Counted from the first letter of the stretch, positions 2 through 33,706 are shown. The stretch is 36,280 nt of DNA from Candidatus Brocadiaceae bacterium (GCA_030018855.1 JASEHG010000001.1:1-36280), one strand, 5' to 3'. Numbers and translations are program-made. Notes: generated from the letters alone by a model not told the origin.

Positions 2-532
2 TTTTTCACCAATATGACCCAGAACACCTTCATTGTGTTGTCTGTATTGGTTGGTTTGTCCTTCGTCACCAAGAATTTCTGGTGCAGGTATCTGTGTCCC
101 TATGGCGCATTCCTGGGGTTCCTGCATTTTAATAACCCCTTCGGGTTCAGGGTGACACGGAATGAGCTGAAGTGTATTGACTGCGGGGCCTGCAGGAGGG
201 CGTGTCCCGTGCTCCTCCCTGTAGATAAGGTGAAGGTGGAAATCTCCCCCGAGTGCTGGCACTGTTACGACTGTCTTAACGTCTGCCCCGTACCGGGGGC
301 ATTGGAGATGAAGGTGGGAGGGGCAAGGGGCAACGTCCATTATGCCCTCTACGCAGTCCTGTTACTGGGCCTCTTTGCAGGGGCTACCACCTGGGCCAGG
401 TATAATGGCCACTGGTACACCTCTATAACCACGCAGGAATACATAGTCCGTGTGGCCGAACTTAACAACCCCAAGTATGAGCACAAGAGGGGAAAGTTTG
501 AGCTGGAATCCAGTGAAAAAAGTAGACAGTAG
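2..532 (+). CDS. NapH/MauN/YccM-type membrane-bound 4Fe-4S ferredoxin, C-terminal part (5' end lies outside the window)
   Basis: The frame is open from the window edge. It has two ferredoxin Cys clusters (CIDCGACRRACP and CWHCYDCLNVCP), preceded by CRYLCPYGAF and followed by a hydrophobic helix. Confidence 0.75.
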   Translation, partial: FFTNMTQNTFIVLSVLVGLSFVTKNFWCRYLCPYGAFLGFLHFNNPFGFRVTRNELKCIDCGACRRACPVLLPVDKVKVEISPECWHCYDCLNVCPVPGALEMKVGGARGNVHYALYAVLLLGLFAGATTWARYNGHWYTSITTQEYIVRVAELNNPKYEHKRGKFELESSEKSRQ

Positions 533-653
533 ACAGCAAACAGTAGGCAGGAAAACCCATGTCAAATCCAAATTTGAAAATCCAAAGATTTGGGCTTTGA
601 AATTTGAACTCTTCATTTATCCCTGTATGCCGTCTACTGACTACTGTCTACTG
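521..653. repeat. Long imperfect hairpin. Outer arms are CAGTAGA-type heptamers (521-550 versus 624-653; 521-532 pairs perfectly with 642-653). Inner arms are CAAATYY/TTGAAAT heptamers.
   Basis: Read directly: agtagacagtag / ctactgtctact, with a nested low-complexity palindrome at 561-610. Confidence 0.85.
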
Positions 654-655
654 AA

Positions 656-1675
656 ATGAAATACCTCCCTATAGGGAAGCCAGACCCTGAACTCCTTGCT
701 AGACTCCTGGAGCAATATACGGGGGCTAAAGATAGGCGTTTAGTAATAGGGCCTGCCGTGGGGGAGGATGCGGCAGTTATTGATTTTGGGGACCGGTACC
801 TGGTAGCCAAGAGCGACCCCATTACCTACGCCACTGAACGCATAGGCTGGTATGCCGTACACATAAATGCCAATGACATAGTCACCCTGGGGGCTGAGCC
901 CAAGTGGTTCCTTGCCACCTTACTCCTTCCCGAAGGAAAGACCGACGAGGGGCTGGTAAGGGGCATCTTTGCCGATATGGCCAGGGCCTCAAAAGAGTTG
1001 GGGGTAGCCCTTTCTGGAGGACACACGGAAGTAACCCCTGGGCTTGATAGACCGATATTGATTGGGCATATGCTGGGCGAGGTGGCCAGGGATAGACTCG
1101 TCCTGAAGACCAATGCCAGGCCCGGGGACAGGATTATCTTGACAAAGGGTATAGCAATAGAAGGTACGGCCCTCTTAGCCAGGGAGAAATCAAGGGAGTT
1201 AGTGACTCACTTCGGTAAGGCTTTCGTACAAAGGGCAAAAAGATTTCTACTTGAGCCAGGAATCAGCATAGTCAAAGAGGCCCTTACCGCCGCCAAAGCC
1301 GCAAGGGTCCACGCCATGCACGACCTCACAGAAGGGGGACTAGCCGCTGGCATACGGGAGATGGCAGAAATTGCCGGCCTGGGGGCTGAGGTGGATAGAC
1401 AGAAGATACACGTCCTTCCAGAGACAGAAAAGCTTTGTTCATATTACGGACTGGACCCACTGGGCACTATAGCCTCCGGGTCCCTCCTTATCGCGGTGGC
1501 CCCGAGGGACAGTGGTAAGGTACTCTCCGCCCTGGAGGCAGAGGGGGTAATGGCTGAGGACATAGGTTGTCTTAGAGAGAAGGCAAGGGGGCTAAAACTA
1601 ATGGAGGATGGACGGCCAAAGGTTTTTCCCGCCTTTGAGGTGGATGAGGTAACGCGGATATTATCCAGGGATTAG
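656..1675 (+). CDS. AIR synthase-related protein (PurM/ThiL/HypE/SelD superfamily); specific function unknown
   Basis: The N-terminus has GPAVGEDAAVIDF...VAKSDP, followed by the HINANDI and GGHTE motifs typical of the PurM-like ATP-binding fold. There is no C-terminal HypE Cys motif and no SelD N-terminal Cys/Sec. Confidence 0.75.
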   Translation: MKYLPIGKPDPELLARLLEQYTGAKDRRLVIGPAVGEDAAVIDFGDRYLVAKSDPITYATERIGWYAVHINANDIVTLGAEPKWFLATLLLPEGKTDEGLVRGIFADMARASKELGVALSGGHTEVTPGLDRPILIGHMLGEVARDRLVLKTNARPGDRIILTKGIAIEGTALLAREKSRELVTHFGKAFVQRAKRFLLEPGISIVKEALTAAKAARVHAMHDLTEGGLAAGIREMAEIAGLGAEVDRQKIHVLPETEKLCSYYGLDPLGTIASGSLLIAVAPRDSGKVLSALEAEGVMAEDIGCLREKARGLKLMEDGRPKVFPAFEVDEVTRILSRD

Positions 1676-1680
1676 TGGTG

Positions 1681-1702
1681 GGGGCGTATTGCAATACGCC
1701 CC
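1681..1702. terminator. Perfect 22-bp GC-rich palindrome GGGGCGTATTGCAATACGCCCC between convergent genes. Possible bidirectional terminator and a member of the GTAGGGGC...GCCCCTAC repeat family.
   Basis: The self-complementarity is perfect on reading. No U-tract follows it, so terminator function is uncertain. Confidence 0.4.
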
Positions 1703-1726
1703 TACATTAAGCGATCAGGTCTGTCC

Positions 1727-2779: not shown

Positions 2780-2831
2780 GTATTAAAGAGTAGACAGCAT
2801 GGGTGAGGATGAATCATTCCCCGTTTGTCAT

Positions 2832-2875
2832 CTACTTCCTTACTGTTTGCTGTCTACTGTCTACTGTTTACTGTT
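2832..2875. repeat. Tandem heptamer array (CTACTKY-type: TCTACTG TCTACTG TTTACTG) overlapping the rpsP stop codon
   Basis: Read directly. The rpsP C-terminal codons ...AAA CAG TAA lie inside the array. Confidence 0.8.
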
Positions 2876-3122
2876 TAAAGGCAACCCCCTGCCTCTTCAG
2901 TATGGCGGCCACAGACTCGGTAGGTTTAGCCCCCACGCTGACCCAGTGCTCTATGCGCTCCTTCTTTACGAACTCCCTCTTGGCATCTTCTTTAGCCAGG
3001 GGGTCATACCAGCCCACCTCCTCAACGGTCTTCCCGTCACGCTCCTCGTGGGCATCCATGATGGCAATCCTGTAAAAGGGCCTGTTCTTCCTGCCCATCC
3101 TCTTTAACCTGATACGAACCAT
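2868..3122 (-). CDS. rpsP: 30S ribosomal protein S16
   Basis: MVRIRLKRMGRKNRPFYRI is the canonical S16 N-terminus. A strong SD (AAGGAGGT) lies upstream. Confidence 0.95.
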   Translation of the reverse strand: MVRIRLKRMGRKNRPFYRIAIMDAHEERDGKTVEEVGWYDPLAKEDAKREFVKKERIEHWVSVGAKPTESVAAILKRQGVAFKQ

Positions 3123-3146
3123 TTATACCTCCTTACCTCCTTTTAT

Positions 3147-3200
3147 GTAGCCGCAGGCTTCAGCCTGCGGTAAATAACGCAACCTAAAGGTTGCGGCTAC
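3147..3200. repeat. Compound palindrome. Outer stem GTAGCCGCA/TGCGGCTAC encloses two hairpins, CGCAGGCTTCAGCCTGCG and GCAACCTAAAGGTTGC.
   Basis: Read directly. The first 24 nt recur at 28661-28684 and 32619-32642. Confidence 0.85.
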
Positions 3201-3211
3201 TAGACGGAACA

Positions 3212-3290
3212 CAGAATACAGGATTCAGAATGCAGAATCAAGAACACAATCCGCCTTAGGCGGACTGACTACTGAATTCTAAATTCTGCA
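3212..3290. repeat. Heptamer-arm hairpin (CAGAATR arms) tipped by the palindrome TCCGCCTTAGGCGGA (3250-3264)
   Basis: tgcagaat (3231-3238) pairs with attctgca (3283-3290), and the central GC palindrome is perfect. Confidence 0.8.
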
Positions 3291-3297
3291 ATATGAC

Positions 3298-4647: not shown

Positions 4648-4669
4648 GGTCTGTGTACTTATATTATAC

Positions 4670-4695
4670 AGCAGTAGGCACTACTTCCTACTGCT
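4670..4695. repeat. 9-bp stem hairpin AGCAGTAGG / CCTACTGCT downstream of murA
   Basis: Read directly; same CAGTAGG unit family as the other arms. Confidence 0.7.
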
Positions 4696-4769
4696 TACTA
4701 GGTTTCCAAGGCATTATACTTGAGGGTCTTAAGATATGCAAGGGTCATGCTGAATGCAGGATGTGCCGC

Positions 4770-6081: not shown

Positions 6082-7017
6082 TTATCGCTCGGCCCGCCTA
6101 AGGCGGATACCGCCTCCCCTCCTGGCTACTATCACCCGCTCTATGTCTTGCAGGTCTTTTATTGCCTCCCCCCCTCCTAGATTTTCTTCCTTCAGGATAA
6201 GCCCGCTAATAGGAGCGGCTTGCCCCTCTCCCAGTTCCAGCACCAACCAGCCCCCTGGTTGTAGCCAGAGGGGGGCCCCCTTTATAATCTCTCGGTAGCA
6301 GTCCATACCGTCTTTACCAGCAATGAGCGCCTCCGGGGACTCATGGTTCCTCACCTCCGGCTGCAGTCCCTTCCACTCCCCCTCCGGGACGTAGGGGGGG
6401 TTGGAGGCAATGAAGTCCACCCTGCCCTCAAGTCCCAGGCCTTGAAAGGCGGCGTAGAGGGGGCCTTTTAGAAAAGAGATTTTGTCTTCCACCAGATGCC
6501 TCTGGGCATTAAATCGGGCCAGCCTCAGTGCCTTTTTAGAGGTATCAGAGGCATATACCTCTGCATGGGGGAGGTTGACGGCAAGGGAGACGGCTATGTT
6601 GCCGCTCCCTGTGCCGATGTCCATGATAATTGTAGATTGGGTGGGTTCTGCCCTCTGTAGTACCGCTTCCACCACCAGTTCCGTCTCGGGTCTGGGGATG
6701 AACACCCCTTCTTCTGTCAGGAAGTCAATGGACATGAATTCTACATGCCCAATAATGTACTGGAGGGGTACCCTGGCGGCCCTCTTTTTGACTAGACGTC
6801 GGAAGGTTCTCAGGGGGGCGGTGTCTATGGATTCATTAAGTCTGGCGTAGAGTTGGTGTCTTGGTAGGCTTAAGACTTCTGAGAGGAGTACCTCGGCGTC
6901 TAAGCGGGGGGAATCTACCCCTGTCTTCTCCAGGAGTTGAGTGGCCTCTAGCAATGCCTCCTGGAGGCTCTTAGACCCTTTCTGAGGGCTCAGCGGGGCA
7001 CTACGATGAGGCATCAA
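6082..7017 (-). CDS. prmC: Release-factor glutamine N5-methyltransferase PrmC/HemK, with a repeat-derived C-terminal tail
   Basis: SAM motif DIGTGSG and catalytic NPPY. It lies directly downstream of prfA. The last ~11 codons (GGGIRLRRAER) overlap the palindrome CCGCCTAAGGCGG at 6094-6106. Confidence 0.9.
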   Translation of the reverse strand: MMPHRSAPLSPQKGSKSLQEALLEATQLLEKTGVDSPRLDAEVLLSEVLSLPRHQLYARLNESIDTAPLRTFRRLVKKRAARVPLQYIIGHVEFMSIDFLTEEGVFIPRPETELVVEAVLQRAEPTQSTIIMDIGTGSGNIAVSLAVNLPHAEVYASDTSKKALRLARFNAQRHLVEDKISFLKGPLYAAFQGLGLEGRVDFIASNPPYVPEGEWKGLQPEVRNHESPEALIAGKDGMDCYREIIKGAPLWLQPGGWLVLELGEGQAAPISGLILKEENLGGGEAIKDLQDIERVIVARRGGGIRLRRAER

Positions 7018-8450: not shown

Positions 8451-8461
8451 TATGGAAAATA

Positions 8462-8530
8462 CTAGGGACTAAGCACTAGGCACTGAGGACTAAAAGAAGA
8501 CTTGTTTACTGCCTAGTGCTTAGTGTCCAG
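8462..8530 (-). terminator. Heptamer-arm hairpin (GCACTAR units) overlapping the resB stop and followed by TATTTT on the minus strand. Candidate intrinsic terminator of ccsA-resB.
   Basis: 13-bp perfect core: taagcactaggca (8470-8482) pairs with tgcctagtgctta (8510-8522). Confidence 0.5.
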
Positions 8531-9980
8531 TAAGGGCCTGACCCAACTTTTCCATCATCCCGGCCTCTCCCCCCCAAATCCCTGCCCTCTGCAGTTGTAC
8601 ATAGGCCCGGCTACCCTCAGACGGTCCGCCTGAGGCGGATGCCACCTTCTCTACTACGTAACTGACTCTCAGCCACCGCCCCCAGGTCCTGAAGAGCATC
8701 CCGAAGAAGAGTACAGGGACCGCTATCCAGAGGAGGGCTACCCCTGGGTCATGACGATAGCTCAGGACAGTCCCAGCCTGGATGTTTCCAACCCCCACCC
8801 GCACCTCTTTAACCTCCTTTGTCTCACCCTCGTAAATCTTAAGTATTTCAGGCCTCTGCCCTTCCCCAGGGGTATAGGTCAGTTTCACAAAGGGACGGAT
8901 GGTGCAGGGACTTCCATCTTTTAAGAGTAACGTGCCTGAGATTACCTGCATGGTGCTGAATTCCCCCTCTAGTCCTGGTAGCTTATACGTACCCTTCTCG
9001 TCGGGTTCTACCTTTACCCCATTGGCAAAGAGGTCAAAGCGGTAGTCGTAGGCACTCTGGTAGAAGGTGAGTCCCCTGTAGCGTAAGGGTTCATTGACCC
9101 TGACGGTGACTTCCTTTTCAGGCTGCCTGGCATCGTATACCACTATGCGGCTGGCATACTCTACGGCGTAGAGGGCATCCTCCTTAGAAGAGACTACTAG
9201 CCCCCCTTGCTTCAGGGTCTCCTTGAGCCGTGGGCCGAAACCCTTTGCGGGGAAGCCCTCTATGCTGGGCTTCTGGGTGTATTTAATAGAAAATTTCTCA
9301 AGACCCAGTTTGAACTTCTTCTCAGGGGGCGCCTCCAGATGCTTTTCACCCCCGGTATACTTGTTCCACCTTATATCCTTTGAGACGGTGGCAACGTCTA
9401 CAGGCTCTCCTGGATAGATAGTCAGGTTAGACTCAAAGGCAAAGAGGAAGGTTATCATGGCCCCAATTACCGTGAGGATGACGGAGATGTGATAGGAGAG
9501 GGAGAGCCATACATAGTGGATAAAGCCTTGTTCAAGGACTCCTCCTGAGTGGACTTCTCCCATAAGGTGGGCAGGTTTCCTGAGGAATAGCCTTTTCTTG
9601 AAGAATCCCTCAATCCGCCTTGTGGCCTCTTCGGGGCCGTAGGGCAACTTGAACCCCACCGTGGCCTTATGTGCAGAGAGGGTAGAGACGGAGAGCATAG
9701 CCGGCTTCCTTATCTTGAGCACCCACGTGAGGCGCTTATAGGTGCAGAGGCAGAGGTTGAGGAAGAAGAGCCCCGACACCCCCAGGAACCAGGGGCCTGA
9801 ATAGACGTTAAGGAGGTCCAGCCCTTTTATAATCCTTAGGGCTAGCCCCGTTACCTTAATCTGCCCGTAGTCCCCACCGTAGGGCAGTATGTTCCCCACC
9901 AGATAAAATAAGAGGAGGATACCAAAGAGTACGATGGACGTCTTGGTGGAGCTCAATATGTCGTAGAGGGCGGAGAGCAT
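8520..9980 (-). CDS. resB: Cytochrome c biogenesis protein ResB/Ccs1 (system II)
   Basis: I place the start at the internal ATG (MLSALYDILSSTKTSIVLFGILL, a typical ResB N-terminus). This removes the overlap with ccsA. The layout is a large soluble domain flanked by TM segments. Confidence 0.85.
   Translation of the reverse strand: MLSALYDILSSTKTSIVLFGILLLFYLVGNILPYGGDYGQIKVTGLALRIIKGLDLLNVYSGPWFLGVSGLFFLNLCLCTYKRLTWVLKIRKPAMLSVSTLSAHKATVGFKLPYGPEEATRRIEGFFKKRLFLRKPAHLMGEVHSGGVLEQGFIHYVWLSLSYHISVILTVIGAMITFLFAFESNLTIYPGEPVDVATVSKDIRWNKYTGGEKHLEAPPEKKFKLGLEKFSIKYTQKPSIEGFPAKGFGPRLKETLKQGGLVVSSKEDALYAVEYASRIVVYDARQPEKEVTVRVNEPLRYRGLTFYQSAYDYRFDLFANGVKVEPDEKGTYKLPGLEGEFSTMQVISGTLLLKDGSPCTIRPFVKLTYTPGEGQRPEILKIYEGETKEVKEVRVGVGNIQAGTVLSYRHDPGVALLWIAVPVLFFGMLFRTWGRWLRVSYVVEKVASASGGPSEGSRAYVQLQRAGIWGGEAGMMEKLGQALTGH
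8623..8646 (-). repeat. In-frame copy of the TCCGCC-N3-GGCGGA palindromic module inside resB (encodes VASASGGP)
   Basis: Minus strand GGTGGCATCCGCCTCAGGCGGACC. Near-identical modules occur in the same frame at 30383-30409 and 33825-33851. Confidence 0.8.
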
Positions 9981-9986
9981 ATTTTT

Positions 9987-10059
9987 AGGGGTTAGGGAGT
10001 AGGGGGGAGGGGGTAGAGGGAAAAGATTGCTAATCCCCACTCCCCACTCCCTACCCCCT
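9987..10059. repeat. G-tract arm / C-tract arm hairpin filling the ccsA-resB spacer
   Basis: aggggttagggagtaggggggagggggtagaggg ... tccccactccccactccctaccccct. Confidence 0.85.
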
Positions 10060-11137: not shown

Positions 11138-11294
11138 GATTCAGAGGTCAGAATTCAGTAGTAGATAATGGACTATGGACTATAGACCAGGGACTACGGA
11201 CTAAAGAAAGTCTATAGTCCAAAGTCCAGAGTCTAAAGTCTTTCCGCCTCAGGCGGATTAGTATTCTGAATTCTGACTACTGACTTCTGTATTC
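11138..11294. repeat. Nested heptamer hairpins. Outer arms are GAATTCA/CAGTAGT-type, inner arms are GGACTAY-type, and the palindrome TTCCGCCTCAGGCGGA lies at about 11242-11257.
   Basis: ggactatagac pairs with gtctatagtcc, and gaattcagta with tctgaattctgactac. Read directly. Confidence 0.75.
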
Positions 11295-11335: not shown

Positions 11336-11365
11336 TTGACAAGGTGTTTCCGTGGTTGCTATAAT
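11336..11365 (+). promoter_or_regulatory. Near-consensus sigma70 promoter (TTGACA, 18 nt, TATAAT) for the CNNM gene pair
   Basis: Exact consensus hexamers at 11336-11341 and 11360-11365, about 135 nt upstream of the ATG at 11501. Confidence 0.7.
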
Positions 11366-11374: not shown

Positions 11375-11493
11375 GGGACTAGGGGTTAGGGATTAAGGGC
11401 TAGGGATAGGGGAAGAAATATAACGCAGGCTAATCTGCCTGAGGCGGACTGCGGCTACCCCTGCCCTCTGGCCCCTAATCCCTGACTCCTGCC
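11375..11493 (+). promoter_or_regulatory. Structured 5' leader. G-tract arm (11375-11412, six G3-4 runs), a central CTGCCTGAGGCGG palindrome, and a complementary C-tract arm (11455-11493) ending 7 nt before the start codon.
   Basis: Read directly. No SD-like sequence lies between the hairpin base and the ATG. Confidence 0.6.
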
Positions 11494-12827: not shown

Positions 12828-12838
12828 GTTTTAAGACC

Positions 12839-13835: not shown

Positions 13836-13860
13836 TTACTTACATTAAAACGCACCAGTT

Positions 13861-21693: not shown

Positions 21694-23816
21694 AGGGCTA
21701 GTTCCTCTACGTCCCCTTTTATACGTAACTCCCATCTATCCCCTGGCCGCATAGAGAGTTGCCACAGTGGGAGGACGGTAGAACCCTGGTACACCTTTTC
21801 AAAGCCCGATTCGCTCTGGGATACGGTCATGAGGGGCATCAGCCATAGTTCAGCCTCCTTGTCCCACCCGAGGGATACCCTCAGGCCTAGGTGCTCGTCC
21901 ACCAGAAAGACCTTTTTCTTTTGGGAAAAACTCTCAGAGATGGCGAGGTGCCCCACTCTGTCCTCGTCGTCCAGTAAGTAGTACCTCCCCTCTGCCTCCC
22001 CTGCCGACATGGAGAGGTTAAATTCTACACCGAAGTTACACACAATCTCCTTTTTAGAGATATTAGCCAGGCTGTAAGCAATGTTCAGGCTGGGAGTCAG
22101 GCCGTCTAAATCCACCTGCTTCCTTATCAATAACGAGTCCCTTTCCCCCTGGATGGTACAATGGCGATAGAGTTTTAAGCTGACCCCATCGGGTCTTTCC
22201 TCAAACCGGCACTGGTAGGGTGCAGTCAAGGAGTCCCCCAGTTGAGTGAGTTTCCCCTGGAGGCAGTCCTCCAGGGCGGCCTGGGGTGGCAAGAGGTGGT
22301 CTATCAGCCCCTCCTTAAGGTAGCCATCGTAGTGGAGCCTCTGCTTGAGTTCCTCTTCTACCTGGGGAATGATGTCATGGATGCTCTTAACGTCTCCTAC
22401 GTGCGTCTGAGGTCTTGCCTCAAGGATCTTTTTGTGATAGGCCTCCTCCCTTCTACTAAGGGTGTTGAGGAGGTTCAGTCCCCTGGGTTTATAGTCCAGC
22501 TCATAGAGGTGTCCCCCCCTATCGGGCTTGAAGTAGGCATTGAGGAGGGGGTTGGTGAGTTTGAACTCCTCATGGGTATCCAGGTCAAAGTCCCTGACCT
22601 CTACGTGGGCCCCCGTGCTGGAGCCGCACAGAGACTCCGCCAGGAGGAGGTGCTGGTACACGGCACTGCGGAGGTGAGGGAGATACAGTCCCCCAAAGAC
22701 ACCGTGCCAGTAGGAGTCGTTACACTGGGCCTGGTAGAGTTCCTTTTGGGCATCCCCCCTGCCCTCCTTTTCTAAAGAGGGGACAGGGGAGATTTCTGTC
22801 ACTTTCTGGCTCACCTCTAGCATCCTGGCATACATTTGATGGGCCTCCGGGTATTTGACCCTGAAGTTTCTCCACGTGCCCCCTTTGAGGAATTGCCTGG
22901 CCACGTGCCCCCAGGGCTGGTTGGCCATAGCCCTGGAGACCTCTTCATACTCCATGAGACCCCTGGATGGCAAGGCCCACTCCATCATCTCCCTGTAGGA
23001 GGCGTCGGGGAGATAGACCCTGCCCCTGTGGGGCAATCTCTCCACTGCCTCTCTGAATGTGGTAGTCCTTATCCAATCCTTATTCCTCCTGAGGGTCTCT
23101 AAGAACTGTTCCAGCCAGCCCTCTTCATATACGTGCTTATAGGTCTTTGGCCAGCTCCCAAACTTCTCCCCGTCATCCGCATATACCAGGAGGGCATTAT
23201 CTCTTTGCTGTGCAAACTGGCGGAGGTATTCTACGGTCTTTTCTGGATGCTCAAACGGGATGCAGTACCTGAGTCGCTCGCTTCCAGGAAAGATTTTTAG
23301 TATCTCACCTTCGTCCTCGGTGAGGAAGTAACCGTCCAGCTCTTTCTCCTCCAGTCCTGCGTGCCTGAAGTGGGAGTCGTCCACCACCGTGTACTCCACC
23401 CCTGCCTCCCTGAGGGAGCTTACCAGGGACTGTTCCCACACCCTCTCTGCCAGCCAGATTCCTTTGGCCTCGGCATCCAGGTGGGTGTTAAGCCACCGGG
23501 TATAAGAGCGTATCTGCCCCAGTCTGTCTCTCTTTGGGAGCATTACCAGGATAGGTTCGTAGAATCCGCCCCCTAGGAGTTCTACCTGTCCCTTCCGTAC
23601 CATGGAATGGATGTACTCAAAGACCCTGGGCTTGTGGGTTTTTATCCACTCAAGTAGTCCGCCCGAATAATGGAGTACCAGGCGTACGTCCGGGTACCTT
23701 TCCATGATTTTAAGGAAGGGTTCGTAGGCCCTGGAGCATACCTCCTCAAAGACCCAGTGGAAGTTGCCGACCGGTTGATGGTTATGCAGGGCAAGGATTA
23801 GGTTTACGCGGTTCAT
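21690..23816 (-). CDS. GH57-family glycoside hydrolase no.2 (4-alpha-glucanotransferase / alpha-amylase-like architecture with DUF1925/DUF1926-type C-terminal domains)
   Basis: N-terminus LILALHNHQPVGNF, nucleophile region GIWLAERVWE, and acid/base region YADDGEKFG. Confidence 0.8.
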   Translation of the reverse strand: MNRVNLILALHNHQPVGNFHWVFEEVCSRAYEPFLKIMERYPDVRLVLHYSGGLLEWIKTHKPRVFEYIHSMVRKGQVELLGGGFYEPILVMLPKRDRLGQIRSYTRWLNTHLDAEAKGIWLAERVWEQSLVSSLREAGVEYTVVDDSHFRHAGLEEKELDGYFLTEDEGEILKIFPGSERLRYCIPFEHPEKTVEYLRQFAQQRDNALLVYADDGEKFGSWPKTYKHVYEEGWLEQFLETLRRNKDWIRTTTFREAVERLPHRGRVYLPDASYREMMEWALPSRGLMEYEEVSRAMANQPWGHVARQFLKGGTWRNFRVKYPEAHQMYARMLEVSQKVTEISPVPSLEKEGRGDAQKELYQAQCNDSYWHGVFGGLYLPHLRSAVYQHLLLAESLCGSSTGAHVEVRDFDLDTHEEFKLTNPLLNAYFKPDRGGHLYELDYKPRGLNLLNTLSRREEAYHKKILEARPQTHVGDVKSIHDIIPQVEEELKQRLHYDGYLKEGLIDHLLPPQAALEDCLQGKLTQLGDSLTAPYQCRFEERPDGVSLKLYRHCTIQGERDSLLIRKQVDLDGLTPSLNIAYSLANISKKEIVCNFGVEFNLSMSAGEAEGRYYLLDDEDRVGHLAISESFSQKKKVFLVDEHLGLRVSLGWDKEAELWLMPLMTVSQSESGFEKVYQGSTVLPLWQLSMRPGDRWELRIKGDVEELAL

Positions 23817-23828: not shown

Positions 23829-23862
23829 CTTAAACTCTTAAACTTTTGAACCTTTAAACTCT
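23829..23862. repeat. TTAAACTC/TTGAACC repeat tract, complementary to the tract at 16735-16785
   Basis: The reverse complement ggttcaaaagtttaagagtttaag matches 21 of 24 nt of ggttcaaaggtttaaaagttcaag. Confidence 0.65.
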
Positions 23863-25299
23863 TTTTCTTTGGTAAAGCTCAACGTACTCTCTTGCACTCT
23901 TATCCCAGGACCAGTCCTGGAGCATACCCCGCCTCACGAGTTCGGTCCACTGGGTGGTGTTGCGGTAGGCCTCCAGTGCCCGCTTGATTGTACTAATCAT
24001 TTCCGAGGTATTACTGGAGTCAAAGGTGAACCCTACTTGCTCGTCCACCGTATCCACCAGTCCCCCCGTTCGCCTTACGATGGGTACCGTACCATATTTG
24101 AGGCTGTAAAGCTGGTTGAGGCCGCAGGGCTCAAATTTAGAAGGCATGAGGAACATGTCTGAGCCGGCCTCTATCTCGTGGGAGAGGCGGTTATCAAAGC
24201 CAATGTTTATTGATGCCTTTCCTGGATACCTGGAGACCCTGGACTTCAGGGCCTCTTCGTAAGGCTGGTCTCCCTTCCCCAGGAGGACTAGCTCCAGGTC
24301 TAGTCCCATTAGCTCCTCCCACCCTTCCAGGAGCAGGTCCACCCCTTTCTGTTCAGCCAACCTCCCTATCCATCCTATTACCGGTACGTCCTCCCTCTCT
24401 TTGAGTCCGCACTTCTTCTGGAGGTGTCTCTTGCAGGCCCTTTTCCCCTTCAGGTTTTTAGGGCTGTATCTGGAGGGGATGAGTTTGTCCTTGTCTGGAT
24501 TCCAGGTGTTGTAGTCCACGCCGTTTACTATCCCGAAGAGGTCTTTGGAACGCTCCTGGAGGACGCCATCCAGGCCGCGGCCGAACTCCTGGCTCTGTAT
24601 CTCCTGGGCGTAGCGTCTGCTTACGGTAGTAATAAGGTCAGAGAAGACCAGTCCTGCCTTGAGGACGTTTAGCTTCCCATGGTACTCCAACTGCTTCCAG
24701 TTAAAGTAACTCCAGTCCAGTCCTGTCAGGGGCATATCCTCTTTAGGGAATAGACCCTGGTAGGCTAGGTTGTGGACGGTGAAGACCGTAAGGGTATTGC
24801 GGAAGGAGGCGTCTCCCTGGTAGATGGTCTTCAAATAGGCCGGGGCCAGGGCGGACTGCCAGTCATTGGCGTGGAGGACGTCGGGGGTCAGGCCCAGGGC
24901 CTTAATGGTCTCCAGTACCGCCTTGGAGAAGAATGCAAACCTCTCGCAGTTATCCTTGTAGTCAAGCCCCGTGGCGGGGTCTTTGTAAGGCTCAGCCCTT
25001 TCAAAGTACTCTGCGTTTTCAATAAAGTACACTGGTATACGCGTGTCGGGCATATAGGAGGAATAGACAAGCCCGATAGAGGTCTTGTTGGGCATGGGTA
25101 CGGCGATGGTAATCTTGGTAGGAGACAGGGAGAATTCCTTGCGGTTGACCTGTTTGTAGAGGGGCATAAAGAGGCAGACCTTGTGGCCCAGTTTTGCTAC
25201 ACTCTTGGGTAGTGCGCCCAGGACGTCTCCCAACCCGCCGGTCCTTGCAAATGGGTCTATCTCTGGGGATATATAGACGATATTGAGCTTCTGACTCAT
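23854..25299 (-). CDS. glgA: Glycogen synthase (ADP-glucose-type, GT5)
   Basis: N-terminus SPEIDPFARTGGLGDV, and the C-terminal block PSKFEPCGLNQLYSLKYGTVPIVRRTGGLVDTV. Confidence 0.95.
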   Translation of the reverse strand: MSQKLNIVYISPEIDPFARTGGLGDVLGALPKSVAKLGHKVCLFMPLYKQVNRKEFSLSPTKITIAVPMPNKTSIGLVYSSYMPDTRIPVYFIENAEYFERAEPYKDPATGLDYKDNCERFAFFSKAVLETIKALGLTPDVLHANDWQSALAPAYLKTIYQGDASFRNTLTVFTVHNLAYQGLFPKEDMPLTGLDWSYFNWKQLEYHGKLNVLKAGLVFSDLITTVSRRYAQEIQSQEFGRGLDGVLQERSKDLFGIVNGVDYNTWNPDKDKLIPSRYSPKNLKGKRACKRHLQKKCGLKEREDVPVIGWIGRLAEQKGVDLLLEGWEELMGLDLELVLLGKGDQPYEEALKSRVSRYPGKASINIGFDNRLSHEIEAGSDMFLMPSKFEPCGLNQLYSLKYGTVPIVRRTGGLVDTVDEQVGFTFDSSNTSEMISTIKRALEAYRNTTQWTELVRRGMLQDWSWDKSAREYVELYQRKRV

Positions 25300-25318: not shown

Positions 25319-25383
25319 CCAGCAGTAGATAGTAAGCAGAAGGCACTGCTTTCTGCTTACTTCTTACTCCTTACTGCCTACTG
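25319..25383. repeat. Heptamer-arm hairpin (GTAAGCA/CAGTAGA units) between the GalT-like gene and glgA
   Basis: 10-bp perfect core: gtaagcagaa (25332-25341) pairs with ttctgcttac (25351-25360). Confidence 0.8.
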
Positions 25384-26402: not shown

Positions 26403-26467
26403 CAGTAGACGGCAAACAGTAGACAGCATACAGGGATAGTGATACCCCTGTCTACTGTCTACTGTCT
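26403..26467. repeat. Heptamer-arm hairpin (CAGTAGA units) between GH57 no.3 and the GalT-like gene
   Basis: acagtagacag (26416-26426) pairs with ctgtctactgt (26448-26458). Confidence 0.8.
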
Positions 26468-26474
26468 CCTTGCC

Positions 26475-28637: not shown

Positions 28638-28660
28638 AATTACGTAGCCAGTCCAGTAGC

Positions 28661-28684
28661 GTAGTCGCAGGCTTTAGCCTGCGG
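28661..28684. repeat. Palindrome GTAGTCGCAGGCTTTAGCCTGCGG (CGCAGGC family copy 2)
   Basis: It matches 3147-3170 and 32619-32642. Confidence 0.9.
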
Positions 28685-28685
28685 A

Positions 28686-28753
28686 CAGTAGTCAGTAAAC
28701 AGCGGGCAGTATAACAGTTTTTCCTACCTACTGTCTACTGTACGTTGTCTACT
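28686..28753. repeat. Heptamer-arm hairpin (CAGTAGT/CAGTAAA units)
   Basis: cagtagtcagtaaacagcgggcagtataacag - ttttt - cctacctactgtctactgtacgttgtctact. Confidence 0.7.
28708..28737 (-). promoter_or_regulatory. Weak candidate promoter for the glycogen operon (TAGACA, 18 nt, TATACT on the minus strand), built from the repeat units themselves
   Basis: Hexamers read on the minus strand, about 70 nt upstream of the GH57 no.3 ATG. Confidence 0.25.
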
Positions 28754-30628: not shown

Positions 30629-30686
30629 GTCAGCAGTCAGTAGTCAGCAAGATTATTGATAGCTGATTACTGACAGCTGACTACTG
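30629..30686. repeat. Heptamer-arm hairpin (GTCAGYA units) filling the spacer between the PpiD-like gene and ribF
   Basis: 11-bp perfect core: cagtagtcagc (30637-30647) pairs with gctgactactg (30676-30686). The ribF ATG is 3 nt downstream. Confidence 0.85.
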
Positions 30687-30689: not shown

Positions 30690-31655
30690 ATGGACGTCCT
30701 TTATGGCATAAAACCCCTGCCCAATAAACTTCACTGGCCCGTAATCACCGTGGGGGGGTTTGACGGCGTACACCTTGGCCACCAGAAGATTATCCAGGAG
30801 ACCAGGGATTGGGCGGCTGAGAGGGGGGGTGAGTCCATAGTAATAACCTTTGAAAGACACCCCAAGGGTATATTAAGCGGAAGCCCACTTAGTTTTATTA
30901 CCTCTCTGGAACATAGATTGGTGTTCTTTCAACGCCTCGGGGTAGACCTTGCCGTAGTCCTTGACTTTAATGAGGTGGCCAGCCTGGAGGCAGAGGATTT
31001 TGTAAGTCGGTTAATTGTCGGTTGGTTGGGCACAAAGGGGTGGGTAATGGGTTTTAATTTCCGTTTCGGAAAAGATAAGGGCGGAGATTTTTCCCTGGCC
31101 TCCAGGCTTTCCCAGCGTTACGGGTTCCAGCTTCGTACCTGTCCCCCCGTAAAGTTTAAAGGAGATATTATTAGTAGTACCAGTATCAGGGAGGCCATCC
31201 TGATGGGAGAGCTGGAGACTGCAGAGGGGATGTTAGGGAGAGCCGTTTCTATCCTTGGTACGGTAGTCCGCGGGAGCGGGAGGGGTAAGGGTTTGGGCTA
31301 TCCCACGGCAAACCTTGACCTCCATCACGAGATAAAACCCCCTGACGGCGTGTACGCCACATGGGTAACTATAAATGGTAAGGATTACCTCTCCCTCACC
31401 AATATTGGCACAAGGCCCACCTTTGAGAGGCCAGGGGGTGAGACGACCACCGAGGTATACATTATTGATTTTGACAAAGACCTCTACGGGGAGGTACTGG
31501 AGGTCAAATTTGTCTACAAGCTCCGAGGAGAGCTAAAATTTACCAGCGCAGAAGCCCTGAAGGCCCAGATGGATAAGGACAAAGAGGAACTCCTCAGCCG
31601 TCTGGGTAAAAAGACCTTGACAAAGGGTGGAGCTACTACTATAATTCTATCGTAA
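30690..31655 (+). CDS. ribF: Bifunctional riboflavin kinase / FMN adenylyltransferase
   Basis: GGFDGVHLGHQ nucleotidyltransferase motif and a C-terminal riboflavin kinase domain (GYPTANL...). Confidence 0.93.
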   Translation: MDVLYGIKPLPNKLHWPVITVGGFDGVHLGHQKIIQETRDWAAERGGESIVITFERHPKGILSGSPLSFITSLEHRLVFFQRLGVDLAVVLDFNEVASLEAEDFVSRLIVGWLGTKGWVMGFNFRFGKDKGGDFSLASRLSQRYGFQLRTCPPVKFKGDIISSTSIREAILMGELETAEGMLGRAVSILGTVVRGSGRGKGLGYPTANLDLHHEIKPPDGVYATWVTINGKDYLSLTNIGTRPTFERPGGETTTEVYIIDFDKDLYGEVLEVKFVYKLRGELKFTSAEALKAQMDKDKEELLSRLGKKTLTKGGATTIILS

Positions 31656-31772: not shown

Positions 31773-31797
31773 AAGGCAAGACTAACTAAAAGGCACA

Positions 31798-32619
31798 TTG
31801 AACACCAGGCCCACCACTCAAGAACTCCAGACCAAGGCCAAAGAGATACGCCGCCACATTATCCGCATGCTGGCCAAGGCTGGTTCTGGTCACCCAGGGG
31901 GGTCTCTCTCTGCCACAGACCTCCTTGTGGCCCTCTATTATGGGAAACTCAGACACGACCCCAAAAACCCCAAATGGACTGAGAGGGACAGGTTCGTCCT
32001 CTCCAAGGGTCACGGTTGCCCGGCCCTTTATGCCATCCTGGCTGAGATGGGCTACTTCCCCATAAGTGAGCTAGACACACTACGTCAGTTCGGGAGCCGC
32101 CTCCAGGGGCATCCTGATATGAAGCGGACCCCGGGGATAGAGATATCCAGTGGTTCTCTGGGCCATGGTCTATCGGCAGGCGCAGGTATGGCTATGGCCG
32201 CAAGGATAGATGGCCTGGACTACAGGGTTTATGTCATGCTGGGAGATGGCGAGGTAGAAGAAGGTCAGGTCTGGGAGGCGGCCATGGCCGCAGGGCATTA
32301 CAAACTGGATAACCTCTGCGCCATACTGGACAACAACGGCCTCCAGATAGACGGCCCCATCCACGACGTCATGTCCCCCCTCCCCCTCCTTGAGAAGTGG
32401 GATGCCTTTGGGTGGCATGTAATACATATTGACGGGCACAACATGGCCCAAATACTGGAGGCCTACGACCGGGCCGAGGCCATAAAAGGTAAGCCTACCA
32501 TAATTATTGCCAAAACCGTAAAGGGTAAAGGGGTCTCTTTCATGGAGAATCAGGTGGACTGGCACGGCAAGGCCCCCACCCCTGAACAGGCAGAAAAGGC
32601 CCTGGCAGAACTGGTATAG
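31798..32619 (+). CDS. Transketolase, N-terminal (TPP pyrophosphate-binding) subunit; TTG start
   Basis: SGHPGGSLS, SKGHG and GSLGHGLS motifs. The only in-frame ATG downstream of the TTG start falls too late, at codon 24. Confidence 0.9.
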   Translation: MNTRPTTQELQTKAKEIRRHIIRMLAKAGSGHPGGSLSATDLLVALYYGKLRHDPKNPKWTERDRFVLSKGHGCPALYAILAEMGYFPISELDTLRQFGSRLQGHPDMKRTPGIEISSGSLGHGLSAGAGMAMAARIDGLDYRVYVMLGDGEVEEGQVWEAAMAAGHYKLDNLCAILDNNGLQIDGPIHDVMSPLPLLEKWDAFGWHVIHIDGHNMAQILEAYDRAEAIKGKPTIIIAKTVKGKGVSFMENQVDWHGKAPTPEQAEKALAELV

Positions 32620-32642
32620 TAGCCGCAGGCTTTAGCCTGCGG
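32619..32642. repeat. Palindrome GTAGCCGCAGGCTTTAGCCTGCGG (CGCAGGC family copy 3) in the 44-nt spacer between the transketolase subunit genes
   Basis: It starts at the last base of the TAG stop. Confidence 0.9.
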
Positions 32643-32663
32643 AAACTCTAGGAAGATAATACG

Positions 32664-33635
32664 ATGACAGTAACTACTCCAAAACAGCAACAACAGCCAG
32701 TTAAAAAAGAGGCCACCCGGGATGCCTATGGACAGGCCCTCCTGGAACTGGGCGAGACAAACAAGAACATAGTAGTACTTGACGCAGACCTTGCCAAATC
32801 CACTACTACCCTGAAATTCGGCAAGAAGTTCCCTGAACGCTTCTTTGACATGGGTGTTGCCGAGGCAAATATGATGAATACGGCGGCAGGGTTGGCTACC
32901 TGCGGCAAGATACCCTTTGTCAGCACCTTCTGTATCTTCGCCACCGGGAGGGCCTGGGAACAGGTGAGGAGTACCATATGCTACAGCGGCCTCAACGTAA
33001 AGATAGCGGCCACTCATGGAGGAGTGGCGGTAGGGGCAGATGGTTCTTCACATCAAAGTATAGAAGACTTTGCCCTCATGTCCTCCATCCCCACCATGAC
33101 GGTAATAGAACCTTGCGACTCTATTGAGACCAGGAAGGCCATAAAGGCAGTGGTAGACCACCAGGGGCCTGTTTACATTAGATTGGGCAGATCCCCCTCT
33201 CCTGTGATTACAGAGGAGAGTACCCCATTTGAGATAGGAAAGGCCAATGTCCTCAGGGAAGGCAAGGACGTGACCATAGCGGCCTGTGGTATTATGGTAC
33301 CTAATGCCCTGAAGGCCGCAGAGGACTTATCCGCACGAGGGATAGAGGCCACCGTAATCAATCTCCATACCATTAAACCCTTAGACCGAAAGACCCTGGT
33401 GACGTATGCCAGGAGGACCGGTGCGGTGGTAACCGCAGAACAGCACGTCCTTGAGGGAGGGTTAAGCTCCGCTGTGGCCCTCGCCCTGGCCAGGGAATAC
33501 CCGGTGCCTATGGAGGCAGTAGGTATTGATAACCGTTTCGGTCAGTCGGGAGACCCGGAACTCCTCTTTAAGGAGTACCACCTGACCCCAGACGACATCC
33601 TCCAGGCCGCCCTCAGGGCCTATGGTAGGAAATAA
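32664..33635 (+). CDS. Transketolase, C-terminal (pyrimidine-binding plus C-terminal domain) subunit
   Basis: FFDMGVAEANM, and typical length and adjacency. Confidence 0.9.
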   Translation: MTVTTPKQQQQPVKKEATRDAYGQALLELGETNKNIVVLDADLAKSTTTLKFGKKFPERFFDMGVAEANMMNTAAGLATCGKIPFVSTFCIFATGRAWEQVRSTICYSGLNVKIAATHGGVAVGADGSSHQSIEDFALMSSIPTMTVIEPCDSIETRKAIKAVVDHQGPVYIRLGRSPSPVITEESTPFEIGKANVLREGKDVTIAACGIMVPNALKAAEDLSARGIEATVINLHTIKPLDRKTLVTYARRTGAVVTAEQHVLEGGLSSAVALALAREYPVPMEAVGIDNRFGQSGDPELLFKEYHLTPDDILQAALRAYGRK

Positions 33636-33641
33636 AAGGCG

Positions 33642-33706
33642 TAATTGTAAAATGAAGATTGGTCCGCCTTAGGCGGATTAAAATTTCCAATTTCCAATCT
33701 TAAATT
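33642..33706. repeat. Heptamer-arm hairpin (AATTTCC units) tipped by TCCGCCTTAGGCGGA (33663-33677)
   Basis: aagattgg (33655-33662) pairs with ccaatctt (33694-33701), around a perfect 15-nt palindrome. Confidence 0.8.

Follow-up and report, generated by a model that had tools for sequence, protein, structure and literature searches.

The intergenic spacers of this uncultured, Brocadiales-related planctomycete from groundwater carry heptanucleotide simple-sequence-repeat palindromes, the kind of repeat represented by convergent GGGAATC pairs in Xanthomonas and by STRR hairpins in Nostocales. The organism is a new host for this already known repeat class, and its spacers are saturated with the hairpins, which are interleaved with GTAG-tagged REPs. 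We propose that the hairpins are probably a lineage-specific, hypermutable, dispersed DNA repeat and not a collection of locus-specific functional RNAs. A preliminary description of the window (the whole stretch of 36,280 nucleotides that was analyzed) had placed a heptamer-armed hairpin in nearly every spacer, an observation that is real but overstated.

Tandem Repeats Finder returned about 35 rows of period-7 or period-14 in the window, and an inverted-repeat finder paired the period-7 arrays as arms of 23–33 nt with 73–87% complementarity. A lag-7 scan at a score of at least 8 detected 24 period-7 segments, whereas 50 shuffles gave 0.7 on average and never more than 4; at a score of at least 9 there were 19, 18 of them in non-coding DNA or running over the end of a gene and one (14442–14477) in coding sequence. 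Spacer folds reached z ≤ -2.6 relative to shuffles in 14 of 24 folded stretches. The hairpin architecture is far from chance. We defined 17 hairpins (H1–H17; about 0.5 per kb); about three quarters of the arrays are paired. Thirteen lie between co-directional genes, spanning the stop codon to 2–20 nt before the next start, and others occupy divergent spacers. Of the 23 spacers that reach 37 nt or more, 15 have heptamer-armed hairpins, the remainder displaying small GC-rich palindromes only (5), period-8 direct arrays (2) or nothing (1). In the best register the arms are 75% identical, against 26% at other offsets, but sliding them by whole units still leaves 69%; hence, the complementarity arises mostly because both arms share one unit.

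The CAGTAGA-family hairpins H1, H2 and H14 have in common the higher-order unit CAGTAGAC(A/G)GCAAACAG. H1 (521–653; arms 521–551 and 622–653; fold z = -5.1) contains an inner AT-rich palindrome (~559–604), with the upstream gene's TAG stop codon within its 5′ arm and an ATG at 656 beginning 2 nt after its 3′ arm. H2 (2784–2877), in the spacer between rpsP (2868–3122, minus strand) and a geranylgeranyl reductase gene, combines five units in the 3′ arm with a degenerate 5′ arm, and H14 lies at 26403–26470 (fold z = -4.7). H11 (14518–14591; GCAGTAG/GGAGTAA family) overlaps the 3′ end of a cytochrome c′-like gene, whereas H13 (25319–25383; GCAGTAG/GAAGTAA family; fold z = -4.2) occupies the galT–glgA spacer. 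The GCACTAG-family hairpin H5 (8460–8532) overlaps the 3′ end of resB, and the first triplet of the GCACTAA-family H10 (12752–12827) is the stop codon (TAG) of the preceding gene; H12 (18675–18767) is of the GCACTAT family. H6 (9985–10059; GGGGTAG family; fold z = -3.2) is situated between ccsB and resB, and H9 (11375–11493; GGGATTA/GGGGTTA family) in the 5′ leader of a CNNM gene, with a perfect match to a sigma-70-type promoter (11336–11365) lying upstream of the hairpin. H3 (3207–3296; CAGAATN family) is tipped by the palindrome TCCGCCTTAGGCGGA at 3250–3264, and H16 (30629–30686; GTCAGYA family; fold z = -6.9) fills the PPIase–ribF spacer, the ATG starting 3 nt past its 3′ arm. The locus at 11138–11294 does have hairpin arms, as first described, but actually comprises two nested hairpins and a palindrome: an outer CAGAATT-family hairpin (H7; 11138–11160/11263–11294) encloses a GGACTAT-family one (H8; 11162–11203/11207–11241) and the palindrome TCCGCCTCAGGCGGA (11243–11257). 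Thirteen of the 15 loci originally listed hold up well, the weak ones being, besides 11138–11294, a minimal 9-bp hairpin (H4; 4670–4695; AGCAGTAGG/CCTACTGCT), with the unit and polarity of the other hairpins yet, at ~1.3 units per arm, not a real array; a CAGTAGT-family hairpin that is 65% complementary (H15; arms 28686–28715/28728–28753); and an AT-rich hairpin around another TCCGCCTTAGGCGGA palindrome at 33663–33677 (H17; 33642–33706), in which only the 3′ arm displays a clear array (AATTTCC x2.4).

The heptamers had been considered locus-specific, with the architecture but not the sequence conserved. The architecture is indeed constant, but five or six families, mostly CAGTAG-type without G-tracts, recur across loci (CAGTAGN at 8, GCACTAG at 3, CAGAATN at 2 and GGGGTAG/GGGATTA at 2), as do multi-unit strings: an exact 25-nt string is common to 521–545 and 2841–2865, and an exact 18-nt string to 14570–14587 (H11) and 25365–25382 (H13), both spanning non-identical units. 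Moreover, the more purine-rich arm is 5′ in all 17 hairpins (two-sided p = 1.5e-5), with a CAGTAG-type arm 5′ and a CTACTG-type arm 3′, and the clearly purine-skewed paired arrays in three close relatives all show the polarity of the window (7 purine-rich with a downstream partner and 8 pyrimidine-rich with an upstream partner). Since the polarity of a palindrome survives inversion, a fixed polarity is expected under common descent; together with the shared strings, it points to descent from common templates by inter-locus copying. It is possible, though unlikely, that the arrays instead arose in place by polymerase slippage and intrastrand template switching, with neither a dedicated enzyme nor movement between loci, the recurrent heptamers reflecting mutational preference and composition. 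In many bacteria, heptamers are the most common class of long simple-sequence repeats, and slippage has been proposed for them (Mrazek 2007, as relayed by PMC4679880 and PMC4692102); the near-indifference of arm identity to whole-unit sliding and the central deletions typical of palindrome instability are also in keeping with such an origin. However, it does not account for long exact strings spanning different units at distant loci, independent local origins do not predict a universal polarity, and the presence of the repeats in some close lineages but not in others suggests that a factor was gained.

The GC-rich “tips” of the hairpins belong to a second kind of element, the GTAG-tagged REPs, which sit inside the hairpin loops. 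The small GC-rich palindromes of the tips and other spacers feature a GTAG tag, an 8–12 bp GC stem and a 4-nt loop; this tag is borne by 7 of 26 GC-rich stem-loops, against at most one for each control tetramer. They include: a copy at 1678–1705 on the minus strand (GTAGGGGCGTATtgcaATACGCCCCCAC as read on that strand); a dimer with its tags outside at 3147–3200 (GTAGCCGCAGGCttcaGCCTGCGG ... CGCAACCtaaaGGTTGCGGCTAC); a cluster in a convergent spacer at 13807–13957 (GTAGGGGCAC..GTGCCCC, GTAGGGACAGGGC..CCCTAC, CCCCTCTttctAGAGGGG and GGACAGACC..GGTCTGTCCCTAC; fold z = -6.7); a copy at 28660–28685 (GTAGTCGCAGGCtttaGCCTGCGG) directly followed by H15 (joint locus 28660–28753); and two plus-strand copies, at 32619–32642 (GTAGCCGCAGGCtttaGCCTGCGG) between two transketolase halves and at 35744–35771 (GTAGGGGCACGTtgcaACGTGCCCCTAC) in frame within tsaD, where it matches an insertion of 9 residues seen by comparison with a solved TsaD structure.

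The hairpin pattern changes fast between strains. Hairpins are found in L001, L002, L022, L023 and L026, independently assembled contigs from different projects with collinear flanking genes; genes are 92–96% identical between the compared strains, a divergence (~6%) too coarse to see elementary mutational steps. Presence differs at H2 (no hairpin in L022), H7/H8 (absent from L001 with the enclosed TCCGCCTCAGGCGGA palindrome), H9 (a short remnant only in L001), H10 (a small GC stem-loop, GGGCGACC..GGTCGCCC, instead in L001, L002 and L024) and H11 (a TCCGCCTGAGGCGG stem-loop instead in L001, L002, L026 and L024). Both arms have been exchanged for another heptamer family at H6 (ACAGGNT-family in L002, L022 and L023, with the loop partly kept), H12 (CAGTAGC-family in L001 and L026) and H2 (ACAGGTA-family in L001), while at H5 a central deletion collapsed the hairpin in L002, L022 and L023, and L001 has a longer one. 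Tip palindromes were gained or lost at H3 (missing from L022), H9 (a palindrome nested within a REP) and H12 of L026 (several REPs nested in the tip). The REP dimer at 3147–3200 is missing from L001 and L022, and the site of the 13807–13957 cluster features a heptamer hairpin in L001 and a REP with a nested palindrome in L002. Filled and empty sites compared across strains show no clean insertion boundaries and no target duplications. Among the more distant relatives compared, L024 (85% protein identity) has heptamer-unit remnants only, and heptamer hairpins are absent from L003 (80%) and from others at 65–69%.

At several sites (H10, H11 and 13805–13960) every strain has some stem-loop, albeit of differing class, which could reflect selection for structure rather than targeting. 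Accordingly, one might regard the hairpins as selected RNA structures (intercistronic stabilizers, RNase III/E processing sites, attenuators or translational-coupling/occlusion elements) for which heptamer arrays are the easiest mutational route to a long stem. Their placement between co-directional genes and the leader position of H9 behind its promoter match agree with this; further, transcript stabilization or coupling has been proposed for cyanobacterial examples (PMC2670836), and the majority of Xanthomonas arrays are transcribed (PMC4692102). We nevertheless consider it quite unlikely, and the strong RNA-level selection initially suggested is not borne out: sense and antisense G:U pairs number 26 and 27, an absence of asymmetry that carries low power at ~50 wobble pairs, and a search for terminator-type tails at the hairpins found none, both of which argue for a DNA-level, hypermutable dispersed repeat. 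Hairpins also lie in divergent spacers, and in L001 in a convergent one; they differ in presence between strains with 92–96% identical genes and are missing from close relatives. One array, an unpaired (ACAGTAG)5 on the minus strand (14442–14477), even codes for a lipoprotein signal peptide within the CDS 13961–14497 (minus strand), where L001 has another heptamer family. A dedicated or DNA-level generating mechanism, the other option of the preliminary description, fits better.

A network of post-transcriptional control, in which each domain of a nucleic-acid-binding protein (S1, cold-shock or CsrA type) would bind one heptamer of the arrays, has been proposed for the Beggiatoaceae TAACTGA repeats but is highly unlikely here. 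The unit of the 3′ arm, CTACTGA, does resemble TAACTGA, in the same orientation and 2–7 nt upstream of start codons at H1, H2, H6, H9 and H16 (PMC4679880), and heptamer arrays affect recF/recO expression in a Nostoc preprint (10.1101/2022.06.06.494920), but the paired arrays of the window would form double strands, the genes that follow them are housekeeping genes with no relation to one another, and the family at a given gene varies by strain. An artefact of assembly or chimerism has a negligible probability: the source is a metagenome-assembled genome of an uncultured organism, and assemblers may be misled by low-complexity repeats, but five independent assemblies have hairpins at the same sites between collinear genes.

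In the dispersed DNA repeat that we favor, arms at different loci, with their shared strings and single polarity, derive from common templates by copying, and new palindromic material lands at existing stem-loops or hairpin loops, whether as nested elements or as hairpins replacing small stem-loops. Replication slippage would alter unit number in 7-nt steps, copying within the palindrome by template switching would maintain arm likeness, and central deletion would collapse long palindromes. More speculatively, a RAYT-type single-strand, hairpin-specific HUH/Y1 enzyme might participate: RAYT enzymes require a 5′ GTAG beside the hairpin, cleave at C|T, also within CTAC, and perform strand exchange (PMC3333891). 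The earlier idea of a TnpA-REP-like protein is indirectly favored by the GTAG-tagged REPs of the tips and by the roughly tenfold enrichment of GTAG in the 5′ arms (39/945 tetramers); however, the GCACTAG, GGACTAT and CAGAATN families and most Nostoc units are devoid of it, so a GTAG-dependent enzyme would not suffice for everything. When transcribed, the elements would fold as intercistronic or leader stem-loops and may incidentally stabilize or occlude mRNA.

GTAG REPs have been reported from Planctomycetes and Cyanobacteria, and the small palindromes of the window are typical GTAG-tagged REP/BIME elements, down to the dimers with outside tags and in-frame copies within genes (PMC3733652, PMC2817692, PMC3333891). 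Copies of the GTAG tag recur along the 5′ arms of the heptamer hairpins, as does CTAC, which contains C|T, along the 3′ arms, but, unlike REPs, the heptamer hairpins are 60–160 nt long, not GC-rich and built of tandem-repeat arms, with the tags paired inside the stem and several families lacking GTAG. The Beggiatoaceae TAACTGA arrays resemble those of the window in being intergenic, with 2–6 units of a heptamer close to CTACTGA, in ending a few nt before start codons or overlapping the end of the upstream gene, in tolerating reverse-orientation copies inside ORFs and in their patchy phylogenetic distribution; in contrast, they are essentially all direct (169 sets versus one inverted), of a single unit and without a hairpin (PMC4679880).

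The combination of tandem heptamers and hairpin arms, which the preliminary description took to be undescribed, is already known from Xanthomonas (PMC4692102) and Nostoc (PMC2670836). Xanthomonas genomes each have 70–75 pairs of GGGAATC arrays “with convergent orientation” and stem-loop capability (Rehm et al. 2015; PMC4692102). These and the Nostoc GGGGAYT arrays (PMC4692102) are, like ours, intergenic with the G-rich array first, and the H6 and H9 units (GGGATTA/GGGGTTA) are near-identical to them. The Xanthomonas pairs differ in length and sequence between sister species, the pair type being usually kept (PMC4692102). Xanthomonas has one dominant G-quadruplex-type unit, whereas the window has at least five families, mostly CAGTAG-type without G-tracts, at a density of ~0.5 hairpins per kb, interleaved with GTAG REPs and in another host phylum. 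Hairpins built of the 7-bp STRR repeats are described as “not unusual in filamentous cyanobacteria”, with examples at hupS–hupL and upstream of hoxW (PMC2670836). The Nostoc punctiforme plasmid pNPUN01 (L038) likewise has a purine-rich array, loop and complementary array between genes at 964–1082, 44815–44883 and 46630–46817, in the polarity of the window. The units GTCAGAATTCAG and GAGTAAG are identical in both, and 8 canonical unit classes are common to the window and the Nostoc plasmid against 2.8 expected by chance; the classical STRR1–3 units do not occur in tandem in the window. Fewer arrays are paired than in the window, 10 of 18 in N. punctiforme plasmids and 0 of 8 in those of PCC 7120, at a density more than tenfold below that of the window and in a cyanobacterial host. 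The small dispersed repeats (SDRs) of Nostocaceae (Elhai et al. 2008), reportedly elements of 21–27 nt that become nested by mutual insertion and accompany heptameric repeats, resemble in this respect our nested palindromes. Finally, the same layout recurs in 80 IMG/VR contigs (GTA-type, of probable alphaproteobacterial origin), where the usual polarity is seen in 93 + 88 arrays and the opposite one in 3 + 5.

Tandem Repeats Finder returns about 35 rows of period 7 or 14 in the window, where a lag-7 scan detects 24 period-7 arrays against a mean of 0.7 and a maximum of 4 in shuffles; 18 of the 19 strongest fall outside genes or extend across a gene end. The arms, as paired by an inverted-repeat finder, measure 23-33 nt and are 73-87% complementary, and 14 of 24 folded stretches fold at z <= -2.6 relative to shuffles, down to -6.9. 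With array numbers this far above, and folds below, those of shuffles, the hairpins with heptamer-repeat arms announced in the preliminary description are real, and we define 17 of them (H1 to H17, numbered 5' to 3'), each with both arms of one unit family. Thirteen of the 15 loci originally proposed are good; 4670-4695 is merely a 9-bp hairpin, 28686-28753 and 33642-33706 are weak hairpins, and 11138-11294 resolves into two nested ones. That nearly every spacer carries such a hairpin was an overstatement: we find one in 15 of the 23 spacers of at least 37 nt (counting 2780-3297 as two spacers, either side of rpsP), the others comprising five with small GC-rich palindromes only, two with period-8 direct arrays and an empty one. 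Three ORFs of the window are over-extended through hairpins, and a single array is truly coding.

The genes between these elements are ordinary housekeeping genes; they include ffh, rpsP, murA, prmC, prfA, rpmE, resB/ccsB, ribF, ctp and tsaD, as well as those for two CNNM transporters, two cytochrome c'-like lipoproteins, a glycogen cluster, a two-component pair, tRNA-Phe and a split transketolase. The G+C content of the window is about 53%. It has no HIP1 sites, and its nearest genomes are MAGs of uncultured groundwater Planctomycetota / Candidatus Brocadiales, two findings that dismiss a cyanobacterial origin. The closest are L001 (JACQVQ01) and L002 (MHYW01, RIFCSPHIGHO2_12_FULL_52_36), with 95% and 94% protein identity, followed at a distance by L003 (80%) and L005-L009 (64-69%); scanning metagenomes brought in L026 (96%), L024 (85%) and, from the strain of L002, L022 and L023. 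At the gathering score, tRNA-Phe is the sole Rfam match in the whole window, and the heptamer hairpins match no RNA family. Perfect sigma-70-type promoter matches (TTGACA, 17-18 nt, TATAAT) occur at 11336-11365, conserved in L001 and L002 and placing H9 (11375-11493) in a CNNM leader, and at 31617-31645, upstream of tRNA-Phe.

The view that each locus has its own heptamer is refuted, for the loci draw on a few recurrent families: eight have CAGTAGN, three have GCACTAG, two each have CAGAATN and GGGGTAG/GGGATTA, and one has GGACTAT. Any 5' arm pairs as well with same-family 3' arms elsewhere as with its own partner. Moreover, exact strings are common to distant loci, namely one of 25 nt (521-545 and the reverse complement of 2841-2865), which includes the variant unit CAGCAAA, and one of 18 nt (14570-14587 and 25365-25382). 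Both span non-identical units, a kind of sharing that independent local slippage should not give and that points to common templates. The identity between arms reaches 75% in their best register, against 69% after one of them is shifted by whole units and 26% for other shifts; complementarity of the arms is thus mainly a by-product of the shared unit, and any unit-by-unit mirroring is weak, the more so as selection of the best register favours the first of these values.

Comparison between strains reveals how quickly these elements change. In coding DNA, L001, L002/L022/L023 and L026 match the window at 92-96% identity, and it is precisely at the spacers that the alignments break. At H2 (2784-2877) the CAGTAGA-type hairpin of the window is replaced by an ACAGGTA-type one in L001 and by none in L022; at H6 (9985-10059) the window and L001 have GGGGTAG-type units, and L002 has ACAGGNT-type units in both arms around a similar loop; at H12 (18675-18767) GCACTAT-type units in the window correspond to CAGTAGC-type units in L001 and L026, with several REPs nested in the tip in the latter. 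H5 (8460-8532) has collapsed by central deletion in L002, H7/H8 (11138-11294) are missing in L001, H9 survives there as a short remnant only, and the tip palindrome of H3 (3207-3296) is absent in L022. The other strains have small GC stem-loops in place of H10 (12752-12827) and H11 (14518-14591), and since this includes the more distant L024, the small stem-loop probably came first; one small GC stem-loop of L026 has new material inserted into its loop. Filled and empty sites are both seen, with boundaries that are not clean at 92-96% flank identity when considered against the terminal inverted repeats and target-site duplications of MITEs. Period-7 arrays reach 0.3-0.7 per kb in the window clade and 0-0.05 per kb in L003, L005-L009, L024 and L025. 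The presence of the hairpins in five independent assemblies removes the concern that they are an assembly artefact confined to this contig and, with the strain and density comparisons, indicates that the repeats are real, of recent origin, restricted to this lineage and highly unstable. Two insertions, each specific to one strain (915 nt, L026 1852-2766; 646 nt, L001 2892-3537) and each apparently with an ORF, occupy the sites 13805-13960 and 4648-4769, which in the window are filled by REPs or a small hairpin.

Through all this turnover one property stays fixed. All 17 hairpins have a purine-rich 5' arm of CAGT/ACTA type and the complementary 3' arm (two-sided p = 1.5e-5), a polarity that is identical on both strands because the elements are palindromes. 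All paired arrays with a clear purine skew in L001, L002 and L026 share it (seven purine-rich with the partner downstream and eight pyrimidine-rich with the partner upstream). Hence, gene ends always meet a TAG/TAA-rich arm and gene starts are always preceded by a CTACTG-type arm; the upstream stop codon lies inside the hairpin or is overlapped by it in six of 13 co-directional spacers, and in most co-directional spacers 2-20 nt separate the CTACTG-type arm from the start. A need for stop codons in all three frames does not explain the polarity, as many arms lack stops in some frames and the TAACTGA family has its stops in the opposite arm. The literature, as far as we could find, touches on it only by calling the Xanthomonas pairs "convergent". 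Any mechanism has to accommodate this polarity, which three other data sets share with the window.

The GC-rich palindromic tips formerly taken as part of the hairpins are a separate element, in which a GTAG tag accompanies a GC stem of 8-12 bp with a 4-nt loop, as in GTAGCCGCAGGCttyaGCCTGCGG, GTAGGGGCACgttgcaatGTGCCCC, GTAGGGACAGGGCtaaaGCCC..CTAC and GTAGCCGCAACCtttaGGTTGCGGCTAC. GTAG marks seven of 26 GC-rich perfect stem-loops, and each of six control tetramers marks at most one. Only these small palindromes, in at least four sequence families, have the features of GTAG REPs or BIMEs (multicopy, GC-rich imperfect palindromes of 20-40 nt with a terminal GTAG), from which the heptamer hairpins depart in size, composition and repeat arms. 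They belong to the GTAG REP super-family of Di Nocera et al. 2013, known from Planctomycetes and Cyanobacteria, in dimers and also in frame within genes (PMC3733652; REP table for comparison, PMC2817692). A further palindrome, TCCGCCTNAGGCGGA, has at least six copies. The GC-rich palindromes of both kinds sit within hairpin loops (H3, H7, H9 and H17, the last at 33642-33706), adjoin a hairpin (H15, within 28660-28753) or are nested in each other. GTAG itself is enriched about tenfold in the 5' arms (39 of 945 tetramers); therefore, the commonest heptamer, CAGTAGN, amounts to a tandemly repeated REP tag plus three bases. A scan of the viral collection for the REP GTAGGGGCACGTTGCAAYGTGCCCC gave no matches.

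Several of these smaller repeats also touch genes. The GTAG-REP GTAGGGGCACGTTGCAACGTGCCCCTAC lies in frame in tsaD (35744-35771), as a 9-residue insertion, GARCNVPLP, relative to the solved TsaD 6nak_B, and has a near-identical copy in the spacer at 13805-13836. Copies of TCCGCCTNAGGCGGA inside annotated ORFs, at 6094-6108 (3' end of prmC), 8625-8639 (C-terminal part of resB) and 33831-33848 (N-terminal part of ctp), may be in-frame insertions or signs of mis-set gene ends. An element of about 70 nt that begins TGTAGGGGCAATTCCCGCC and contains nested palindromes is present at 19173-19240 and 21631-21694 as inverted copies (47 + 16 nt exact) either side of a histidine-kinase gene; its left copy is missing from L001 and L026, and GGGCAATT appears to be duplicated at the filled site. 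Just upstream of two GH57-family genes stand direct arrays of period 8, made of GGTTCAAA and of its complement (16736-16785 and 23829-23863). Their copy number varies among strains, with lengths of 31 nt in L001 and 71 nt in L026, and TTCAAAA heptamers reported in front of Nostoc genes (10.1101/2022.06.06.494920) are similar to the unit. At 559-604, inside H1, is an AT-rich palindrome of AAATCCA/AAATTTG-type units. Long arrays of such units, plus CTACTGY arrays, occur at 4780-4913 of L050, a contig of similar G+C from the viral collection that may come from the same lineage.

Of the two explanations offered originally, a generating mechanism at the DNA level fits these data better, and selection for RNA structure is left unsupported. 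G:U pairs are symmetric between the strands (27 antisense versus 26 sense, in a test of little power), no heptamer hairpin is called as an intrinsic terminator (GC-rich stem and T tract), as some small palindromes are, and hairpins are found between co-directional and divergent genes and, in L001, also between convergent ones. Further, the five-unit array at 14442-14477 is coding (CDS 13961-14497, minus strand) and specifies the hydrophobic core of a lipoprotein signal peptide, and the L001 orthologue (12808-12864) has another heptamer family there (MKIKPYLILYSVSCILCSLTLVGC) with a peptide that is still hydrophobic. Taken as a whole, these observations speak for generation and renewal of the pattern in DNA, in which case effects on RNA, if any, would be secondary. 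That the hairpins are instead selected as RNA seems unlikely to us, even though several sites carry some stem-loop in every strain and the G:U comparison weighs little.

The repeats thus form a dispersed family with common templates, fixed polarity and fast turnover, in which palindromes nest into hairpin loops and heptamer hairpins co-occur with GTAG REPs. For the DNA-level generation of this family, we infer that slippage would change the unit number, copying within the palindrome would homogenize the two arms, central deletion would collapse long palindromes and stem-loops would serve as preferred landing sites. More speculatively, by analogy with E. coli TnpA-REP, which requires a 5' GTAG and a hairpin, cuts between C and T, also within CTAC, and performs strand exchange (PMC3333891), a RAYT-type Y1 enzyme might take part. 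The observed polarity is the only one that puts GTAG 5' of the hairpin on both strands; counting against such an enzyme, GTAG is missing from several window families and most Nostoc units. No RAYT (Y1 HUH) gene is found within the 36 kb of the window.

How bacterial heptamer repeats arise and what they do is a long-standing question (for STRR since 1990, and also for the G-rich repeats of Xanthomonas and TAACTGA of Beggiatoaceae), to which the window lineage contributes a case that is far removed in phylogeny and very dense. Its repeat-free close relatives give a gain/loss contrast for finding a responsible gene, and the several strains let turnover be followed through joint arm swaps, collapse and nesting of GTAG REPs. 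In practice, heptamer spacers will break assemblies and mislead gene-start calls.

Among known heptamer repeats, STRR1-3 have the units CCCCAGT, TTGGTCA and CAACAGT. None of these is found in tandem in either the window or its relatives, where the most similar units of the window differ at 2-3 positions, and with the host not a filamentous/heterocystous cyanobacterium the window repeats are not STRR sensu stricto. The TAACTGA repeats of Beggiatoaceae (PMC4679880) recall the window in unit type, orientation and position upstream of starts, but they are direct, unpaired and of one unit, whereas the window arrays are paired and of several families; as only the 3'-arm orientation and the nearness to starts agree, we reject this assignment too.

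The fit is far closer with the heptanucleotide inverted pairs of the Xanthomonas/Nostoc type. The window has tandem 7-nt units in at least three copies, overwhelmingly intergenic, same-unit arrays close by on opposite strands and convergent (the 17 hairpins), and variation in length and sequence at the same site between the window and L001, L002/L022/L023 and L026. Xanthomonas genomes each contain 70-75 convergent, stem-loop-capable pairs of GGGAATC arrays that differ in length and sequence between sister species (Rehm et al. 2015, PMC4692102). Contrary to the preliminary description, STRR repeats do form hairpin arms: hairpins of 7-bp repeats are not rare among filamentous cyanobacteria, for example at hupS-hupL (PMC2670836), and with both kinds already published (PMC4692102, PMC2670836) the claim of an undescribed class falls. 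On the Nostoc punctiforme plasmid pNPUN01, intergenic hairpins consist of a purine-rich array, a loop and a pyrimidine-rich array; some units are identical to those of the window (GTCAGAATTCAG, GAGTAAG), and eight canonical unit classes are common to the two against 2.8 expected (p ~0.008). The eight arrays in 100 kb of Nostoc PCC 7120 plasmid alpha are all unpaired. On pNPUN01 (L038 1559-2001), a "four helix bundle protein" gene lies between purine-rich and pyrimidine-rich arrays, that is, an ORF in a hairpin loop, which resembles the ORF-bearing intervening sequences of rRNA helices; on a PCC 7120 plasmid a heptamer array comes after a gene of this kind (L036 3776-4185).

Searching the viral-contig collection for three CAGTAGN units gave at least 120 stretches, and at the 80 loci among the matches listed 93 purine-rich arrays have their partner downstream and 88 pyrimidine-rich ones upstream, with 3 + 5 the reverse; the folds are of the same type as the window hairpins. 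Many of these contigs are high in G+C, genes of gene transfer agents or prophages are present in several of the few examined, and the best matches of one GTA-type protein are alphaproteobacterial records (~44% identity). Many of the high-G+C IMG/VR contigs (L041-L120) are densely set with CAGTAGN hairpins, at up to 2.2 arrays per kb; six of ten ORFs from seven contigs have Pfam matches, all to gene-transfer-agent or phage structural families, and we found no paper on such repeats in the organisms behind them. Thus, pNPUN01 and the IMG/VR matches indicate that the architecture and polarity are widespread. A bolder conjecture, to which we give little credence, is that fixed-polarity heptamer-arm palindromes (CAGT 5', ACTG 3') constitute one cross-phylum class, spanning cyanobacteria, Xanthomonas, alphaproteobacteria and the window planctomycete, that is made and renewed by a horizontally transferred enzyme. 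That hairpin-specific, single-strand DNA enzyme would be related to, or cooperate with, RAYT/IS200-type Y1 nucleases, and the heptamer arms would be tandem amplifications of its tag and cleavage motif (GTAG and CTAC, cut after its first C); if so, phylogenetic profiling across sister lineages without the repeats could name the gene. The architecture itself is that already described from Xanthomonas and the filamentous cyanobacteria, and the window supplies a further, dense example of it from a phylum new to the class.
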